Shown in pieces: positions 17,604-30,956 of a stretch of DNA of 64,000 bases; position 1 is the stretch's first letter, and each line of letters begins with the position of its first letter. The DNA lies in the NCBI GenBank assembly GCA_050290185.1, contig JBNKHE010000005.1, positions 96,001 to 160,000 of the forward strand, read 5' to 3'. The stretch is from Pontiella sp. (GTDB taxonomy: Bacteria; Verrucomicrobiota; Kiritimatiellia; Kiritimatiellales; Pontiellaceae). The translations under genes and the position numbers were made by a program. The notes below the pieces were generated by a model that did no database searches, had not been told where the DNA came from, and saw only the letters and a program-made list of their open reading frames with translations.

Positions 17604-19643
17604 ATGTTGAAGGTTGGAATTTTAAAGTTCATTTTGCCGGGACTCTTTCTGGTTTCCGCAGCCTATGCGGTTGACTCGACGCTTCCGACAACGATTCCCG
17701 GTGGCCCCATTGATATACGGGCTCCGAGTCTGGCGCGTACAAACGATACGGTTTTTGCCAGTGGTGGAGTAACCGGACGATACGAGAATGTGACACTCAG
17801 AGCTGATGCAGCTTCGGCTAATCTGGAGTCCGGAGATCTTCATCTCGAGGGGGATATCCATTTTGAGCGTGATAATGTGATCTGGAATGGAACCGTTCTG
17901 GACTACAACTACCTGACCAAGGTTGGAAATTTCGGACCGTCCTCGCTCGATTATGATCCGATCTTAATGAGCGTCGAACATATTGAACGGGTGTCAACCA
18001 ATGAATACCTGCTTCGAGGGGCCACCTTTACCACATGTGCACTGGACCATCCCCACTATCAGATTAAGGTCAAGGAAGCACGGTTGATTGACGACAAGTA
18101 CCTCAGAGCCAAAGGGGCTACGTTTTATGTCCGGGGTGTTCCCGTTTTTTATTTTCCATATTGGCATCAGACGCTGAGCCGTAGCATTTTTACATTCCGC
18201 GCCGGTTTCAGCAGCGAGTGGGGGGCCTTTGGCTTGATTAAGGCCACCGTACCTTTGACCGATGATCTTACATCGATCTCCGATATCAACCTTTACAGCA
18301 AACGCGGAGTCGGCCTTGGGCAAGGGGTTGCCTGGAATTATCCCTCCGCGGCCGGAACGGTTGAATCATTCTATCTGGCGGACCAGGATCCGAATGCCAA
18401 ATATACGATTCCGGAGATTGGTTCGGACCGATACCGGCTGAAGCTAGAACACCTTCAGCACTTTTCGGACACTCAGTATATCAATACGAAATGGAACTAC
18501 CTGAGTGATCCAGTCGTGACGAAGGAGTTCTTCAAAGCTGAATACCGGAGATACGCCCAGCCGGAAAACTATGCGTCATGGGTATATGGAAATAATTTCG
18601 TGGGAAGCGAAGTCTTTGCGAATTATCGGCTGAATGACTTCTACGACAATACCGACCGGATCGAGTACTCCGCGGATATCTATCGTACCCGCATTGGCAA
18701 CACACCATTCTATTTCCAAAGCGAGAACAGCATTGCCCATCTTGAACGGGTTTATGCCGCTACCAATGCGCTGGACAGCATCGATGCCGTGCGTATTGAT
18801 TCGGCCAATACCATTTTCATGCCGCAGCGATACGGGTTCCTAAACGTGATTCCCCGCGCAGGGTACCGCGCGACCTATTATTCCACGAGTCCAACGGTTG
18901 GATCCGATGAGTTCAGGGAAATTCCCGAGGGCGGGGTTGAGGTGTCGCTGCAGGCATCGCGGGTGCTGTCCGAACGGGAACGGTGGTACGGTAAGGGCCT
19001 TCGCCATAAAATAGAACCTTATCTCGATTATATGTATGCCGACGCATCAATCGGAACCAACCGATTGTACCAGTTTGATGCGGTGGATGCACTGGACGAT
19101 CAGAACCAGGTCAAGGTGGGATTACGCAATGTATTGCAGACCCGGCGTGACAACCGGGTCTCCCGCTTTATCGATGTGGATCTCTATACCCACTATCTCG
19201 CCGATAGAAACGGCGCTGCGGATAACATTGATTCATTGTTTGTCAATGCCCGGATGCCACTGACGCGCCGCACTATGGTGGATGTAGACGGAGAAGTGGA
19301 TTGGAACCATGGCATCGTGCCATTTTTCAATACCCGGTTTTCCTACAGGAAAAGCCGCGAGTTGATGCTTTCCCTGGAACATCTTTACTGGGAAGCGAAA
19401 AGAAAATCGCTCTGGACTCCAAGGTTTGATCTCTATCCCGAAGGGCGGTATTCACTGTTCGGATATGCCCGCTATGAAGACCGGGCGAACGATATCGAAG
19501 AAGTGGCAATCGGCGGATACATGAACTGGTGCTGCATGCGTTACGGGATCGGGTATCATCTATTTGATGAGAACGAGCATGCCATCATGTTTTCCATCGG
19601 CTTGTCGGCCTTCCCGGAAGCCAGCATCTCAAGCAGCTTCTAG
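17604..19643 (+). CDS. lptD: LPS-assembly protein LptD
   Basis: Signal peptide, OstA-like N-terminus, FTTC...PHY, VPVFYFPY, YSKRGVGLG, LRHKIEP, beta-barrel C-terminus ending in F. Confidence 0.88.
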   Translation: MLKVGILKFILPGLFLVSAAYAVDSTLPTTIPGGPIDIRAPSLARTNDTVFASGGVTGRYENVTLRADAASANLESGDLHLEGDIHFERDNVIWNGTVLDYNYLTKVGNFGPSSLDYDPILMSVEHIERVSTNEYLLRGATFTTCALDHPHYQIKVKEARLIDDKYLRAKGATFYVRGVPVFYFPYWHQTLSRSIFTFRAGFSSEWGAFGLIKATVPLTDDLTSISDINLYSKRGVGLGQGVAWNYPSAAGTVESFYLADQDPNAKYTIPEIGSDRYRLKLEHLQHFSDTQYINTKWNYLSDPVVTKEFFKAEYRRYAQPENYASWVYGNNFVGSEVFANYRLNDFYDNTDRIEYSADIYRTRIGNTPFYFQSENSIAHLERVYAATNALDSIDAVRIDSANTIFMPQRYGFLNVIPRAGYRATYYSTSPTVGSDEFREIPEGGVEVSLQASRVLSERERWYGKGLRHKIEPYLDYMYADASIGTNRLYQFDAVDALDDQNQVKVGLRNVLQTRRDNRVSRFIDVDLYTHYLADRNGAADNIDSLFVNARMPLTRRTMVDVDGEVDWNHGIVPFFNTRFSYRKSRELMLSLEHLYWEAKRKSLWTPRFDLYPEGRYSLFGYARYEDRANDIEEVAIGGYMNWCCMRYGIGYHLFDENEHAIMFSIGLSAFPEASISSSF

Positions 19644-20767
19644 AGATTATCAACTCCTACCTCGACCCGGTAGTATAGTTTACGTGCGGTTTGATGCACG
19701 GTATCCGTATAGGAACCAGATAGCAGATTGCTGACCTGCGTGTCGAAACCTGCGTTCAGGTTGGTCGGGCTGGTGACGGTGTAGTAGCGTCCCGGGACCA
19801 CATTCCATGAAAGGACCGGATATTCCAGATGGATGGTGAAGACCGATTGTCCATTGGTTGGGTCGGTGCCGACGACATACTCTTCCCATGTAGTTGCACC
19901 GTCCGCGTCCTGATCCAGTGCGACATCGGCGGCATAATTAGTCAGCCCATACCGTACCATCCAAGTTTCCGGTACAGCATATTGCTTGAGATATATGAGC
20001 TTTTCGTAAACCAGTTCGTACAGTACACTGTAGCCTGCGGTTACGGGATGGCCGTTGAACTGGTCGAGTGGCAGTTTTAGATAGACATGCTGTGCTGCGC
20101 GTCGCCGAGTTCTCCGCCATAGCCATGATGTAGAAAGGTTGAACGGGTTCCCTCTATGAGGTAGCAGTTTTGCTCTATGGCGACATTCCGAATGACTTGG
20201 TTAGCGGCCGGCGTGGTCGGCGTCGCATTCGTCAGGTAGTCCAGTGATCCTGCGAGGTTTGCACTGAAGCCGTCAAACGGATCGAAGTAGGTCATCATTA
20301 CGATATCCGGAATGGGGATGTTGTTTTGCAGGTTTGTTACGATCCCGGTCAGGTTGGTGTAGTATTGATCAATGTCCGAGAGCGAAATAAATCCATCCTG
20401 GATACTTCCGAGCAGGTCGTTTCCGCCGATGAGGATGATTACGAGGTCCGGATTCCGGTTCTTCACGGCGCTCAAGTGCCCTTGCCAGTCGCTCGCCGTG
20501 GAGCCGGACACCGCGGCAATGCCGGGCCAGAGTGTCTAAATCGTATTGCTCTTGGCCGGAATGGAATCCTTCGCCAAACCGAAGAGCATGTCGGCCCAAC
20601 CATAGTCGCCGTTGGTTTCTGGGTTTACTCCAACGGAGATACTGTCGCCGACAATGTCGAAAACCGCATATTCCTTAGGCGATGCCGATTGTATTCCGGC
20701 GATCATCATGCAGACAGCAGCGAGTGCGAGCTTACCCCATTCTAGAACCCTGAGTAGGGGGTGCCAT
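19640..20767 (-). pseudogene. Disrupted secreted SGNH/GDSL hydrolase with a PVC-type C-terminal domain
   Basis: Signal peptide, VGDSIS (block I), AVSGST (II), IGGND (III), FNGHP (V), then W...YGL...D.DADG...WEEYV.GTDP...YYRV. Broken by an in-frame TAG (20536-20538) and a frameshift at a 5-bp duplication (20088-20097). Confidence 0.85.
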
Positions 20768-21309
20768 TATTTCCCAATAAGCTTCAGGAACTCGTTTCGG
20801 GTGGAGGATTCACGCCGGAAACTCCCCAGCATGGCTGATGTGACCATGCAGGAGTTCTGTTTCTCTACTCCGCGCATCATCATGCATAAGTGTTGCGCTT
20901 CAATAACGACTCCAACGCCCTCCGGAGCGATGGTGTCCATGAGCGAGTTGGCCACTTCGTTCGTCAGCCGTTCCTGTATCTGCAGGCGACGGGCGAAAAG
21001 GTCCACAATACGCGCGAGCTTGCTGACCCCAAGGACTTTGCCTTCGGGGATGTAGCCGATATGGCATTTGCCAAAGAAGGGGAGCATGTGATGTTCGCAC
21101 AGGCTGTAGAGTTCAATATCCTTAACGATGATCATGTGGTTGTCCTCAACCGTGAACACCGCATCGTTAATAACATCCTCCAGCCGCTGCCGGTATCCAC
21201 GCGTGAGGAATTCCATTGCTTTTGCCGCCCTTTCGGGGGTGTCGAGGAGTCCTTCGCGATTGGGGTCTTCGCCGAGGTTGGATAATAGTTCCTTGTAAAG
21301 TTCTTTCAT
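20767..21309 (-). CDS. folE: GTP cyclohydrolase I
   Basis: [46 protein letters not shown]. Confidence 0.98.
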
Positions 21310-21335: not shown

Positions 21336-23030
21336 CTATGGTTTCCGCCGGAGCCGTGCAAGTACGATCACACCTTCAACAACCATCCAGATTTGAAGAA
21401 TGGTAATCATCGTGCCGATTCCGAATAAAAGCCATTTCTCCTGATGTGCAAATGTAACCAGATTGATTCCCATGGCCCAACCGGTCATGACGATCATGAA
21501 TACCATCGGAATGGCTGTGTAGATGGTGGGGATGTTCTTGCGGGCAAGCCATACTGTGATGACCAGTAGAGCCAAGCCGCCCAGTAACTGGTTGACGGCG
21601 CCGAACAACGGCCAAAGGGCCAGGGCGCCTTTGCCCCCACCGCTGGAAAATGCGAGTAGCAGCGCGGTAAACACCGCGACAAACGTGGCGGGATGCTTTT
21701 TGCCAAAGGCCGGCAGCTTGCAGCTGTCCGCAATTTCGGAGATGATATAGCGCTGAAGGCGGGTGGCCGTGTCGAGCGTTGTCGCGGCAAACGAGGCAAC
21801 GAATACGCCCATTAACGTGGTCACAAGGGAAGGGGGAAGCTTGAGTCCCGCAATCAAATTGCCGGAGCCGGTGACGAATGCCGCGATTTTTGCACCCAGC
21901 CCCTGTGCGGATTGCCAGCTGGGATACTGTTGATTAAATGCGTCCGCGCCCGTGTAGAGTACACCGTCTTTTACAAGCCCGAGTCCAATTCCTGCGCCAC
22001 AGGCTATGATTACGAGAACGGCCAACATTCCTTCAAGGAGCATGCCACCGTAGCTGATTGGCTGAGCACTGCTTTCATTGTCACATTGTTTGGATGAGGT
22101 GCCGGACGAGACCAGACAGTGAAATCCGGAGATTGCGCCGCATGCCACCGTGATGAACAGGAGGGGGATCATGGAGGGTACTCCGTCGGCATGGAGATTG
22201 GCGGCAGGAGCTACCATGGGGGGGTGAACCGCTACGACGCCAAGCATTAGCAGGGCCATCGCAATGCAAAGCTGAAAGGCGTTGATGTAGTCCCGGGGTT
22301 GCAACAGGGTGGTCACGGGAAGAGTGGAGGCCACATAGGCATAGATAAGAAGGAGTATTACCCAGATTCCTACCGAGGACAGCCCGCCCAAGTCGGGAAG
22401 ATTGACAGGAAAGTAGCTTCCCATGACAATCGTCGAATACATAAGTATGCTGGCAATAATGCCGTAGGTGAGGTGCGACTTGCCCTTCTTGTAAACCATG
22501 AATCCCAGCCAGATTGCAATGGGTAGTTGGAACCATACAGGAATTACTGATTCCGGGAAAATGCTGAATACTGCGGCGATGACCACGCCGAAAATGGCTA
22601 TGACGATCCAGAGCGCAAAGAAAATGATTAACATAAAAAGGAATTTTACGCGCTTCCCGATGATGCTTCCTGCCAGATCGCCAATTGTTCGGCCTTCATG
22701 GCGAAGAGAAATAACCATCGATCCAAAGTCGTGCACGGCCCCCATGAAAATTGATCCGACAAGTATCCAGATCAATGCGGGCAACCATCCCCAGATGATG
22801 GCGATGGCGGGGCCAACGATGGGGCCGGTCCCAGCAATCGATGTAAAGTGGTGACCAAATAGCACCGTTTTATTAGTTGCGACAAAATCCACGCCATCAT
22901 GGTGCGTCTCGCTCGGGCACTTTGCCGTCTTATCAATCTTAAAGATACGACGGGCGAGGAATCGACCATAGGTATTATAGGCGATGATGTATAAAACAAA
23001 TGCAAATGCTGCAATAATCAGTGAGTTCAT
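21336..23030 (-). CDS. cstA: Carbon starvation protein A family transporter
   Basis: [62 protein letters not shown]. Confidence 0.96.
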
Positions 23031-23091: not shown

Positions 23092-24114
23092 TCAATCAAA
23101 TGGACGGCGGATCATACATTGCAGATGGGTTTTCCCATTGGAGGTGGATTCAACGTCCAAGGTTCCGCCGAGTTGCTCGGTGCGGTGTTGCATCAGCCTT
23201 ATTCCCAATCCCTTTTCGACCTTGGCAGGCAAGGGACGGCCATCATTGATCACGGATAATTCATAGGCAGTCGGAGTCGCTGCAAGAGATATGTCGACAT
23301 TAAACGCTCTCCCGTGCCGGACTGCATTCGTTATGGCTTCCTGGGTAATTCGATAGAGTTGATGTTGGATGTGCTTCGGTATTTCATTGTCCTCGACTTT
23401 AAAATCAAGGTTAAACTTGGTGCCTGCGGTTTCTGCAAAATGTTCAGCTACGGCAGCTACGGCATTCATGTAGCTGGTATTCTGGTTCGCGAAGAAGTGA
23501 TCAACAAACTCAAGGTTCTCAATCGTGGCTATGCACTCGTCTATCATTCTATTCAATTTAGCCGCTTGAAGATGTGCGGGGTTCCCCTCAAACACCAAGT
23601 GATTAACAAGCACATCGCATCTTTTAAGCATCCTGGATAAGGAATCTCCAATATCCCCAAGAAGCATGTGGCTCAGCAATACTTGAGAGGTCTCATGGCT
23701 CTGAACAATATAATGCTGTAATCGTCTGAGTTCCTCGGTTCGTTCCCCAACTTTTTGCTCTAAAATCGAATTGAGGCGCTCGAATTTACTTTTCGTATAA
23801 CCTAGAAAAGCAATAGCGGCAGAAGTCGCCAACTGTGTGGATATTCCGAAGGGATTAAATGCCTCGTCCCACAAACCCGGATCATTGGAATAGTAATGCA
23901 ATAGAAAGTAGTGATACGGGATGGTGAGAGCGGTTGTGACCACGCAACCTGTGAAGCCATATAGCCATGCTCCAACCATTGCGAGAGCGATCGAAAACAA
24001 CATTACGGATATGTTGAGCGCCGGGAATGCCAGAAAAGAAAAAAGTACGTAGGCCAACCATGCACACAAATAGAGCATCTGTTTTGTTTGTCTTATATCA
24101 AATAAGTTAAACAT
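23092..24114 (-). CDS. NarX/HisKA_3-type membrane histidine-kinase homolog lacking the phosphoacceptor His, ATPase domain largely intact
   Basis: About 4 TM, V.ERTEEL coiled coil. H-box position reads SHMLLGDIGDSL; RITQEAITNAVRHG, INDG, GLGIRLM, LGGTL are retained. Confidence 0.85.
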   Translation of the reverse strand: MFNLFDIRQTKQMLYLCAWLAYVLFSFLAFPALNISVMLFSIALAMVGAWLYGFTGCVVTTALTIPYHYFLLHYYSNDPGLWDEAFNPFGISTQLATSAAIAFLGYTKSKFERLNSILEQKVGERTEELRRLQHYIVQSHETSQVLLSHMLLGDIGDSLSRMLKRCDVLVNHLVFEGNPAHLQAAKLNRMIDECIATIENLEFVDHFFANQNTSYMNAVAAVAEHFAETAGTKFNLDFKVEDNEIPKHIQHQLYRITQEAITNAVRHGRAFNVDISLAATPTAYELSVINDGRPLPAKVEKGLGIRLMQHRTEQLGGTLDVESTSNGKTHLQCMIRRPFD

Positions 24115-24128
24115 TATCTTTTCGCATT

Positions 24129-25142
24129 TTAAGTCGGCTTAACTGAAGAAATGCCATTGGGTACAGAGCACCTAATGATAATATCATCGGTTGGTGAAAT
24201 TTCTGTGCTTAACTCACCGTGAATAAGCTTTGCTCTGTAACGCATCAGTTCCACAAACATGTTGTTCGAGATATTCTCTGGGCTATTGCATCCCTCCACT
24301 TTCGTGAGTAGGCAGTATTTGTCTGATTCAGAGTAAAGATGAATTCTAATCCATGATGGATTGTCATCGTGTTGAGTATTAAGAATGCATTCGTATACAA
24401 TTCGGTAAAAGTGAGTTACGATGAAATCTGGAATATCTTGGATGGAAAAGTCCAATTTCGTCTCGAACTGGATGTTAGCTTTTTCAGAAAAGTAGGATGT
24501 CAGCTCATCAAATGCTGCATCCAAGCCAGCCTCCATCATTTTAAACGGAAATAAGGTTCGAGATATCTTTCTGGCAAGATAAAGGTTTCGTTGGGCCGAT
24601 CGAACTAAGTCCACAACCCGATCCAACTCTCTGAAGGAGCTTTTTTCAAGATCGGCCTGCAGTGTGCTGCTGTAAAGCAACAAACCTGTTAAGGTTTGGC
24701 CTAGGCCATCGTGGATGTCCTGACCAAGGTTGCGCCGAACATGTTCGTCATCCGTGATCAACTGTTCGATCAGGCGGTTGAGTTCTTCGGTGCGCTCAGC
24801 AACCCTTCGGTCCAATTCGATAGAGAGATCTTTTACCCGATCTTTCTGATTCTTTAGCGTTCCCATGAGCGGAGCTATTAATACTGGTACGAAAGTGCCG
24901 AGCGCTTTCGCCTGATAAATCTCGATAACGTCCCCATAATAACCGAGAAGAAAAGCGTTGTATGGCAAGGATAGAAGAACAATTAATAATCCATTTCTTG
25001 TTCCAAACAGCCAGGCACCAAGCCCATAAAGACCAAGTGAGGGGATTGCTGCGTTTATGTTGACGAGAGGGAAATAGTGAAAACTGGCCCATATATAGAT
25101 GATCCATAGAAGACCGTAAGCGATATGTTTTATCTTTCCCAT
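24129..25142 (-). CDS. NarX/HisKA_3-type membrane histidine-kinase homolog with intact H-box and degenerate ATPase domain
   Basis: About 4 TM, VAERTEEL, RRNLGQDIHDGLGQTL. G1 and G2 boxes are replaced (KVEGC; NNMFVELM). Confidence 0.85.
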   Translation of the reverse strand: MGKIKHIAYGLLWIIYIWASFHYFPLVNINAAIPSLGLYGLGAWLFGTRNGLLIVLLSLPYNAFLLGYYGDVIEIYQAKALGTFVPVLIAPLMGTLKNQKDRVKDLSIELDRRVAERTEELNRLIEQLITDDEHVRRNLGQDIHDGLGQTLTGLLLYSSTLQADLEKSSFRELDRVVDLVRSAQRNLYLARKISRTLFPFKMMEAGLDAAFDELTSYFSEKANIQFETKLDFSIQDIPDFIVTHFYRIVYECILNTQHDDNPSWIRIHLYSESDKYCLLTKVEGCNSPENISNNMFVELMRYRAKLIHGELSTEISPTDDIIIRCSVPNGISSVKPT

Positions 25143-25278
25143 ACTCTAAAGATAGCAGAGGCATGGAGAGTAACAACCTCTTTATTGTAGCTAGAAACAG
25201 CCGATTATTCGCTCCTTTGACAACTGGGACTAAATTCGATTTGCCGCGTGTAGGGGGATTCCCTAAAGTGCGCGGATT

Positions 25279-26358
25279 ATGAAAAAAACAATACTGCACG
25301 CACAGCATCTTGAACTTGGGGCCCGCATGGGGGAATTCGGTGGATGGGATATGCCGATTCAATATGCCGGAATTCTGCAGGAGCACCATCATACACGATC
25401 TAAGGCATCCGTATTCGATATTTGCCATATGGGTGAATTCGAACTTTCAGGCCTGACGGCGTGTGGGGATCTTGAAATGCTCCTTACCTGCAATATTTCA
25501 TCATTACAGATTGGGCAGGTCCGTTATGGATTTATGCTCAATGAGAAAGGGGGAACCATCGACGATCTGACCTGCTACCGGTTGGAGTCGGAGCGCTACA
25601 TGCTCGTAGTAAATGCCGGAACGGCCGAAAAAGATGCGGAGTGGATTAAGGCGCACCTTTCTAAGGAAACCATTTTTGAGGACCGATCCGATTCTTTGGC
25701 CAAACTCGACATACAAGGTCCGGAATCACGTCATGCACTCGAAGACGTCTTGGGGTGCACATTGCCGGAATTGGGCTACTTTCGATTCAAGGAATTTGAT
25801 ACAGGGGGAGCCTCATGCATCCTGAGCAGAACCGGATACACCGGTGATTTTGGATATGAAATCTATTTACCAACTACGGCGGCACAGCAATTGTGGACAA
25901 AACTACTTACTCATGAATTGATAGAGCCCGCCGGATTGGGAGCGCGTGACACCCTTCGTTTGGAAATGGGATACCCATTATACGGGCATGAGCTGTCAGA
26001 AACCCGAACGCCGGTGGAAACATCGCGCGGCGCATTTATCAACACGGATAAAAGGTTCATTGGACGAGAGCAAGTTTCCTCTGACCTGGATAACCCACCG
26101 GCCTATCTGGTTGGCCTGATGTTCGATTCCAAGAGGGCGGCTCGGGAGCATGACAAGGTCTTTGTTAATGACCTGGAGATTGGTGAAGTGACCAGCGGAT
26201 CCGTGGCACCTAGTCTGGGTACTGCGGTGGCCATGGCATTTGTTAAGCCGGAATGCGCGGAAGTCGGAAAGACGCTCCTCGTCGATATTCGCGGAAAAAA
26301 GTTTCCGGCCGAAATTGTCGAACTTCCATTTTACAAGCACGGGACTGCCCGTAACTGA
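25279..26358 (+). CDS. gcvT: Glycine cleavage T protein (aminomethyltransferase)
   Basis: FGGWDMPIQY, FDICHMG, SRTGYTG..GYE, GLGARDTLRLEMG.PLYGHE. Confidence 0.97.
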   Translation: MKKTILHAQHLELGARMGEFGGWDMPIQYAGILQEHHHTRSKASVFDICHMGEFELSGLTACGDLEMLLTCNISSLQIGQVRYGFMLNEKGGTIDDLTCYRLESERYMLVVNAGTAEKDAEWIKAHLSKETIFEDRSDSLAKLDIQGPESRHALEDVLGCTLPELGYFRFKEFDTGGASCILSRTGYTGDFGYEIYLPTTAAQQLWTKLLTHELIEPAGLGARDTLRLEMGYPLYGHELSETRTPVETSRGAFINTDKRFIGREQVSSDLDNPPAYLVGLMFDSKRAAREHDKVFVNDLEIGEVTSGSVAPSLGTAVAMAFVKPECAEVGKTLLVDIRGKKFPAEIVELPFYKHGTARN

Positions 26359-30068: not shown

Positions 30069-30956
30069 ATGACCGCAAAAATTATTGATGGAAAACAGGT
30101 TGCAGCTGAAATCCGGGCGGAGCTGAAGGAGGAGGTTTCCGTTCTCAAGGGCAAAGGCATCGTGCCGGGACTGGGAGTTATTCTGGTAGGAGACGATCCA
30201 GCATCCAGATCCTATGTCACAGCCAAAGAGCGGGCGTGTGAGGATATCGGTCTGTTCTCCGATGATAACCGGCTTTCAGCCGAAACGACGCAGGAGGAAC
30301 TGCTGGCGTTGGTGGAGCGCATGAATCAGGATCCCAAGATTAACGGTATTCTGGTGCAGTTGCCGTTGCCTAAGCACATTGATGAAGCCGCCGTACTGCT
30401 GGCGATCGATCCCGACAAGGATGTGGACGGATTTCATCCAATGAATGTTGGCAAGATGGTTGTGGGCGAGAAAGCCTATCTACCTTGCACGCCCCATGGC
30501 GTGCTGCAATTGCTGAAGAGAAGCGGTGTCGAAACGAGCGGAGCACATGTGGTTGTGGTAGGCCGAAGCAATATTGTCGGTAAGCCTGTCGCCAACATGC
30601 TGTTGCAAAAGAAGGATGGTGCCAATGCGACTGTTACACTTTGCCATACGCGCACCAAGGATCTGGGCTATCATACCCGTCAGGCCGACATTATCATCGC
30701 CGCTTCAGGTTGGCCCAACACGATCACTGCGGATATGGTTAAAGAGGGTGCCGTGATCATAGATGTCGGTGTAAATCGGGTTGAGGATCCAAGCCGTGAG
30801 CGAGGCTATCGTTTGGTCGGCGATGTGGATTTTGACGCCGTGAAAGAAAAAGCCTCGCTGATCACGCCGGTTCCAGGAGGCGTCGGACCAATGACAATCA
30901 CCATGCTGCTTTACAATACCGTGGAGTCGGCCAAACGGGCCAACGGAATAGACTAA
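30069..30956 (+). CDS. folD: Methylenetetrahydrofolate dehydrogenase/cyclohydrolase
   Basis: IIDGK, GILVQLPLP, KDVDGFHP, PCTP.G, GRSNIVGKP, TPVPGGVGPMT. Confidence 0.98.
   Translation: MTAKIIDGKQVAAEIRAELKEEVSVLKGKGIVPGLGVILVGDDPASRSYVTAKERACEDIGLFSDDNRLSAETTQEELLALVERMNQDPKINGILVQLPLPKHIDEAAVLLAIDPDKDVDGFHPMNVGKMVVGEKAYLPCTPHGVLQLLKRSGVETSGAHVVVVGRSNIVGKPVANMLLQKKDGANATVTLCHTRTKDLGYHTRQADIIIAASGWPNTITADMVKEGAVIIDVGVNRVEDPSRERGYRLVGDVDFDAVKEKASLITPVPGGVGPMTITMLLYNTVESAKRANGID

Follow-up and report, generated by a model that had tools for sequence, protein, structure and literature searches.

Dividing a histidine kinase between two proteins is an established principle, since FasB/FasC of Streptococcus pyogenes and the split CheA proteins precede the locus described here. 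According to the available part of the report on the Fas system, the phosphorylated histidine comes from FasC (H246) and the kinase domain from FasB, the two proteins form a heterodimer in two-hybrid analysis, and the membrane part of the His-bearing subunit is the proposed sensor (PMC12675982). In split kinases, phosphatase activity has been located on the His-bearing protein, and modelling has tied it to ultrasensitivity (PMC3591291). An estimate of 1.7%, in the form in which the accessible text gives it, counts HisKA proteins without a HATPase match and not reciprocal pairs (PMC3591291; PMC7656254).

For the homodimeric kinase DesK, the available text describes the histidine and the following aspartate (H+1) as a catalytic dyad, and assigns the glutamine at H+5 to the phosphatase reaction (PMC5231405; PMC6798134). 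Ser196, Leu200 and Arg235 of DesK touch the response regulator, and the alpha-2 contacts come from the second protomer (PMC5231405). A loop rule for the direction of phosphorylation, in cis or in trans, "may not hold" for NarQ and NarX, as worded in the available part of a review.

Active histidine kinase dimers are asymmetric, working at one site at a time. Here I describe a gene pair of Pontiella in which this asymmetry appears to be fixed in two genes, the ATP-binding and phospho-His motifs lying, as judged from sequence, on two different proteins. In the open-access literature I found no account of this pair, no full-length HisKA_3 paralogues with complete reciprocal loss and no multi-copy His subunits; the single Pontiella paper that came up there refers to kinases in generic terms.

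Two paralogues with complementary motifs

The two genes, hereafter A and B, lie within the window, which is the whole stretch of 64,000 nucleotides of Pontiella sp. DNA that was analysed (Table 1). Re-reading the minus strand recovered both open reading frames as the earlier note had described them, co-oriented, 14 nt apart and with the motifs that it had quoted. Contigs from two public DNA runs, counted as non-independent because one may be the source sample, span the stretch with zero differing letters (one has a ~45-base gap in B), and a sequencing or assembly error is rejected on this ground.

Table 1. Features of the A–B locus (window positions; aa, amino acids)
Feature	Position	Strand	Remarks
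Gene A, HisKA_3 protein, membrane-anchored	24129..25142	-	337 aa; His-bearing subunit with pseudo-CA domain
A membrane domain, residues 2-100	24843..25139	-	Predicted 3-4 helices; variable, weakly DUF4118-like; candidate sensor
A H-box, H144-D145-x-x-x-Q149	24696..24713	-	Phospho-His, H+1 Asp, phosphatase Gln; roles from DesK
A pseudo-CA domain	24159..24416	-	Fold kept; G1 Asp to Val; G2 glycines lost; Glu251 and Asn255 remain
Gene B, His-less kinase-like protein, membrane-anchored	23092..24114	-	340 aa; predicted catalytic subunit
B membrane domain, residues 7-108	23791..24096	-	Conserved polar residues S41, T60, Q94
B Leu152 at phospho-His position	23659..23661	-	hhalign register; no His in any B copy
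B N-box, E259 to H267 (Asn263)	23314..23340	-	Asn 33/33
B G1 box, N290-D-G-x-P294	23233..23247	-	Asp to Asn, second Gly lost
B G2 box, G302-x-G304	23203..23211	-	Kept 33/33
cstA (carbon-starvation peptide/pyruvate transporter family)	21336..23030	-	Pfam CstA; usual downstream neighbour
folE (GTP cyclohydrolase I)	20767..21309	-	Pfam, synteny; most constant downstream neighbour
gcvT, divergent upstream neighbour	25279..26358	+	Pfam, synteny; opens glycine-cleavage cluster

A and B are full-length paralogues with 25% identity over 335 aa, and hhalign aligns them over 333 columns with a probability of 100, placing A His144 opposite B Leu152, so that the leucine noted earlier at the His position of B is in register. 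Both AlphaFold models show membrane helices, a long coiled coil, a hairpin for the DHp and the fold of a CA domain. About four transmembrane helices had been proposed for each protein; the models do contain predicted helices there, but a hydropathy scan gave few clear peaks. The profile search suggested in the earlier note separates the two, Pfam finding only HisKA_3 in A (30.5 bits, cut-off 24; no HATPase_c match) and only HATPase_c in B (38.6 bits, cut-off 26.4). Across the alignments, HisKA_3 is matched by 40/40 A members and HATPase_c by 32/32 B members, with weak HATPase_c matches in 6/40 A members (best E 0.0024).

The model of A (pLDDT 88.8) has a DHp and CA fold, with DesK and VraS as best fold matches. 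A retains the phosphatase Gln149, and its residues matching the regulator-binding face of DesK (Q149, T152, L156 and R191) are, together with D145, kept in 98-100% of copies. A network of residues joining alpha-2, linker and CA domain (R191, R195, P199, R247) is likewise conserved in A, and is lost in B. The earlier statement that the ATP-binding boxes of A are destroyed stands for G1 and G2, but overstates the case for the N-box, where Glu251 and Asn255 are still present. Genus-wide, a G1 Asp/Asn or both G2 glycines occur in 0/44 A copies; Asn255 is retained by 17/21 of the closest database A homologues, but by only 5/44 A copies of the genus, the subclade of the window's A being less decayed in that it mostly keeps this residue. 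The A membrane domain matches DUF4118 in 3/40 members (E<=0.05).

B retains the N-box Glu, Asn and His, the G2 glycines and the Mg/ATP residues, and its model (pLDDT 83.9) has the ADP-bound CA domain of VraS as best fold match (TM 0.85 by target length). No shifted histidine is conserved among the B copies: any His within 10 residues of the position is seen in 11/36, at scattered offsets. The membrane domain, the coiled coil and the DHp core leucines of B are all kept in register with A. An atlas search with the B membrane part gave clusters without names and a weak DUF4118 lead; the conserved polar membrane residues of B could bind a second signal.

Genomic neighbourhood

The pair stands between gcvT and cstA, with folE beyond. 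I take a gene at 30069-30956 (+) to be FolD-like from its motifs, and with gcvT/P and folE it places the pair in a one-carbon/folate gene region. The genes around the pair (glycine cleavage, cstA, folE) give a hint of one-carbon or peptide metabolism, or may reflect plain synteny. A dedicated role as regulator of cstA is weakened by at least five genomes (G021, G035, G033, G067 and G071) whose locus has the pair but lacks cstA. In several relatives cstA is broken or truncated (L045, L046, L143, L043, L158), which suggests repeated loss.

Upstream of A, at 25143-25176 (-), a possible extended -10 element (TG-n-TATCTT) ends 6 nt before the ATG, and a -35-like TTGTTA lies 16 nt further upstream, with spacing that looks alike by eye in many relatives. 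The closeness of this putative -10 to the ATG suggests a leaderless A transcript; in a promoter scan, itself performing at chance level, the element falls under the threshold. On the other strand, 25215-25278 (+) holds a conserved gcvT promoter (TTGC[GC]G, 17 nt, TA..GT), preceded by an AT-rich element; the promoter's -35-like anchor is found in 28/34 loci and is retained where the pair is lost. This conserved motif was considered as a regulator's site and rejected, as it persists without the pair and a genome scan gives 500 unspecific matches. Further downstream of the pair, 19640-20511 (-) contains a short GDSL-lipase-like ORF (Pfam Lipase_GDSL_2) and a family-less 106-aa ORF; with frames overlapping up to ~20745, these may be remnants of a single disrupted gene for a secreted protein.

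Conservation of the split across the genus

Among the 53 genomes of the genus, a search with B identified the family in 36, and loci were retrieved for all 35 relatives. All 34 unbroken loci, from 33 genomes including the window's (G001 has two), contain one to three A genes followed by exactly one B; contig ends interrupt the locus in G003, G034 and G072, and apart from such interrupted loci none with only A or only B was found in the genus. The conserved adjacency that the earlier note had proposed to look for is present in all 34. A and B overlap by 4 nt at 15/32 junctions, some starts being uncertain.

Copies were assigned to A or B by whole-length profile score, and gene order yields the identical split, so that the groups are independent of the motifs counted. 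Three A fragments (87, 92 and 152 aa), a 77-aa B fragment and one mis-collected regulator were left out. The histidine is present in 46/46 A copies, the H+1 Asp in 45/46 and the H+5 Gln in 46/46, and the phospho-His is found in 0/36 B copies from genomes. A five-residue pocket signature (N-box Asn, G1 Asp/Asn, G1 Gly and two G2 Gly) is complete in 33/33 B copies and in 53/56 intact relatives, against 0/44 A copies, which reach two of the five at most. Database proteins, partly overlapping the genome set, agree: His in 21/21 A and 0/30 B, G2 in 0/21 A and 30/30 B. The decay is thus reciprocal rather than random, as had been proposed, and the losses are not strain-specific. The split shows in the mean pairwise identity as well (A: DHp 41.5%, CA 26%; B: DHp 29%, CA 32.5%), which in the membrane domains is 30% for A and 42% for B.

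The pair is lost in some relatives. gcvT adjoins a broken cstA in G029, where both A and B are gone, and neither gene lies within ~6.5 kb upstream of gcvT in G014. G015 was rejected as a true absence, a C-terminus of the family standing at a contig start before cstA.

The second A–B pair of G001 (L034:7077-9135, G001:C10) has another neighbourhood, with an AAA ATPase and an autotransporter. Its A falls into the subclade of the window's A, a stop breaks up its B, and the pair may be a transferred copy in decay.

Origin and selection

In a tree of the cytoplasmic part (82 rows, roughly half of the A and B sequences being included), A and B form one clade with an SH-aLRT of 99. FastTree on 132 rows also groups them (0.99), without recovering B as one clade; IQ-TREE gives an A clade (SH-aLRT 91) and a B clade (90) with identical three subclades in each. 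Long branches are a caveat on all these trees. One duplication explains A and B, in agreement with the origin suggested earlier, and the simplest reading is a tandem duplication before the genus radiated, followed by reciprocal loss. Recent horizontal acquisition is rejected by the congruent A and B subclades.

No orthologue-level match to the pair was found in 282 class genomes outside the genus (best E 1e-50), and the top 20 matches fetched there are all kinases with intact motifs and a NarL regulator next to them. An intact kinase of a length and architecture like A and B is also found in six Verrucomicrobiota loci and in G261. A generic N-box pattern search returned only distant kinases among the matches listed.

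Six A comparisons gave a whole-gene Nei-Gojobori dN/dS of 0.20-0.48 and three B comparisons one of 0.09-0.23, while two more were saturated; the whole range (0.09-0.48) lies below 1, as the earlier note had anticipated. For the dead CA domain of A the ratio is 0.24-0.45 (no significance test), which argues that this domain is maintained. The same values bear on the possibility that A and B are simply two decaying copies with no joint function. The stop in the second B of G001, truncated A genes in G002 and G061, and the GC content of the pair (43-46%, versus 54% for the genome) would fit such decay, but it is largely refuted by exact reciprocity in 33 genomes, dN/dS below 1 even in dead domains and the congruent subclades, and I regard it as barely credible. 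The pair is instead a very clean genus-wide case of subfunctionalisation, in which annotation pipelines would call both genes broken or orphan kinases.

Candidate partner regulator

The absence of an adjacent response regulator, a caveat raised by the earlier note, is real, since a NarL-type regulator profile has no match in 39 pair loci, but it is largely answered by a conserved orphan elsewhere in the genome. The genome encodes two HisKA_3 proteins and three REC+LuxR regulators in total; the regulators comprise a neighbour of the intact C11 kinase, a protein whose receiver is degenerate and an orphan. This orphan, of the NarL type (REC+GerE; G000:C7:189784-190449), keeps its catalytic residues. 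Its orthologue is present, with an intact receiver, in 39/53 genus genomes, with a kinase within ~3 kb in 0/38 relatives (some cut by contig ends), and beyond the genus no orthologue-level match turned up in the 282 class genomes (identity at most 39%). A NarL-like protein with a degenerate receiver (L057; G000:C1:248404-249210, -) has its acidic pocket and phospho-Asp replaced, and is a pseudo-receiver candidate.

Over the 53 genomes, 34 have both pair and orphan regulator, two the pair only, five the regulator only and 12 neither. This gives a concordance of 46/53, part of which reflects reduced genomes; a Fisher p of 2e-6 overstates the co-occurrence because a control regulator reaches 40/53. 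Among the regulator-only genomes, G015 has its locus in an assembly gap and G016 and G022 are incomplete, leaving G014 and G029 as real exceptions, in which the regulator persists without the pair; these two speak against the pairing. In G013 (93% complete), A is the sole HisKA_3 match and the orphan the sole full LuxR match, and G030 (94% complete) is without A, B and the orphan. In a regulator tree the orphan joins none of the clades linked to kinases. On balance, I consider the orphan a fairly probable partner of the pair.

These distributions also bear on whether A could receive its phosphate from a different, intact HisKA_3 kinase, for instance that of C11, with B acting as an inhibitor or decoy in the manner of the ChrS pseudokinase/HrrS or RetS/GacS. 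This genome does contain an intact kinase of the same subfamily, and heterodimers with pseudokinases have been described. The pair is nevertheless found in eight genomes without a detected C11 regulator, including G007, G076, G032 and G013 (93-95% complete), G013 has no other HisKA_3 match, and the conserved part of B is its pocket; such an arrangement is very improbable.

A model for the A–B kinase

The loss of motifs is reciprocal, the order of A then B is fixed, the genes have one origin and both are under purifying selection. I consider it moderately probable that A and B derive from a duplicated NarX/DesK-type kinase of which each supplies one complementary half, and that they would form a heterodimer, phosphorylate in trans and act on the orphan regulator. 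The nucleotide pocket of B, presumed active, would phosphorylate A His144, presumably in trans. Phospho-A would then hand its phosphate to the putative partner, the orphan NarL-type regulator at C7, and A, free or as an A dimer, would switch the regulator off through its DxxxQ phosphatase motif. The dead CA domain of A is probably a structural clamp, by which an asymmetry that ordinary homodimers reach by motion would be fixed in sequence.

With D145, Q149, T152, L156 and R191 on A and the Mg/ATP residues on B, only a single active face of a heterodimer would be complete, made of A alpha-1 and the B CA domain; this would require phosphorylation in trans, the direction reported for DesK-type kinases. 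One observation counts against a strict heterodimer: the alpha-2 arginine matching DesK Arg235 is kept in A and not in B, although in DesK the alpha-2 contact is made by the second protomer, which would here be B. The R191/R195/P199/R247 network may either clamp the dead CA domain or indicate that A also works as a homodimer. An obligate heterodimer is likely, and the two genes likely work only together, with the alpha-2 arginine of A fitting an A homodimer equally.

In a different arrangement, A and B would each form homodimers, and B2 would phosphorylate A2 between dimers or within an A2B2 complex, in a CheA3/CheA4-like manner. An A homodimer as the unit on which the regulator docks would account for A keeping both the alpha-1 face and the network that B has lost, and A copies outnumber B in seven genomes. 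The membrane domain, coiled coil and DHp core leucines of B, however, exceed what a free catalytic domain would need, and the available text on FasB/FasC reports hetero- and not homodimers by two-hybrid (PMC12675982), so that I hold this arrangement to be unlikely.

The heterodimer also has to accommodate the G1 box of B, where Asn is found in 33/33 copies (Asp 0/33), versus Asp in 45/50 intact relatives. Four intact HisKA_3 kinases of other bacteria (P0053, P0057, P0063, P0071) likewise have Asn at G1. As far as the available text goes, VanS, with an Asn at G1 and the second Gly lost, binds ATP weakly, and GTP less well than ATP; in ThkA an Asn-adenine bond is seen, and one kinase with a G1 Asn prefers GTP (bioRxiv 10.1101/2022.12.12.520123). 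The change thus need not mean a dead enzyme, and since VanS prefers ATP, a G1 Asn alone does not predict GTP use. The caveat in the earlier note, that G1 reads NDGRP, therefore holds as an observation, the Asn being fixed in the B family, and is largely answered by the VanS kinases.

The fixed Asn and the weak ATP binding of VanS could nonetheless point to B as a nucleotide-binding pseudokinase that regulates A, with A mainly a signal-controlled phosphatase and the regulator phosphorylated by small donors or cross-talk. The DxxxQ motif is invariant in A, and the regulator outlives the loss of the pair in two genomes. A pure phosphatase could do without the His and H+1 Asp, yet A keeps both almost without exception; B retains its N-box Glu/Asn/His and G2 glycines, and VanS is described, in the available text, as an autophosphorylating kinase. 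This makes a pseudokinase B distinctly improbable.

Multiple A copies and input logic

In seven genomes the array contains two or three copies of A, and never a second B. The two A copies of G064 are 96% identical in DHp and 24% in the membrane domain, and those of G007 91% and 38%; in the remaining nine comparisons between copies of one genome the divergence is older (DHp 45-55%, membrane 20-45%). The pattern suggests a diversifying set of sensors on the A side, with a single B serving them all. The AND gate put forward in the earlier note is not supported, because these seven genomes combine extra, divergent A copies with a single B; several sensors on one catalytic subunit fit better.

A further elaboration, which I offer as tentative and rather doubtful, is a modular kinase in which B is common to up to three interchangeable A sensors, whose membrane domains diversify or swap around a fixed DHp. 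A–B dimers would then act as kinases and A–A dimers solely as phosphatases. Such a system would combine several signals by OR logic and respond like a switch according to the ratio of A to B, and GTP might be its fuel by way of the fixed Asn at G1. The arrangement suggests a route to new two-component inputs, by duplication of one subunit only.

Comparison with known systems

The Rv0600c and Rv0601c proteins are reportedly domain fragments, and not full paralogues like A and B. The Rv0600c-Rv0601c-TcrA system of Mycobacterium tuberculosis, as far as it is described in the available text, does resemble the pair in having two sensor-kinase genes and one regulator (PMC3544749). HmrABCX was considered as a parallel system and, on the available part of its description, is not comparable. 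VanS-A/C, ThkA and the GTP-preferring kinase share the G1 Asp-to-Asn change with B, but are, in the text available, complete kinases (bioRxiv 10.1101/2022.12.12.520123).

The best sequence and structure matches of the pair are DesK, NarX and VraS, which share its fold, HDxxxQ box and docking residues; unlike A and B, they are described in the accessible texts as homodimers with both activities in one chain (PMC5231405; PMC6798134; PMC8199190). A model of the unsplit state is provided by the intact Verrucomicrobiota HisKA_3 kinases (L063, L064, L066, L086, L097, L106) and G261, which have the length and architecture of A and B and a similar membrane motif. These four-helix-membrane kinases differ in having all motifs intact, a G1 Asp and an adjacent NarL regulator (6/6), and the trees do not place them or G261 as sister of A and B.

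CheA3/CheA4 (PMC3591291) and Hik36/Hik43 (PMC7656254) resemble the pair in having ATP binding and phospho-His on separate proteins. According to the available texts they are CheA-type (HPt) and split by domain, whereas A and B are whole paralogues, each keeping a dead version of the domain that is functional in its partner. The pair offers a test of the ultrasensitivity model for split kinases outside chemotaxis, and a natural system in which to ask which subunit senses, which residues serve kinase and phosphatase, and what role the idle CA domain plays.

The closest parallel is FasB/FasC, which like A and B are two tandem full-length membrane kinase-like proteins with divided roles (PMC12675982). 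In the part of that report available, the Fas system has a ComE-like FasA in the same operon and six TM per subunit, and FasB still has a candidate histidine (H284), whereas the His loss of B is complete (PMC12675982). The pair differs in turn by its HisKA_3 family, by the possibility of multiple A copies and by a likely regulator (REC+GerE) that is unlinked. By likeness of description rather than by homology comparison, A and B would thus work like Fas, without being members of the FasBCA family.
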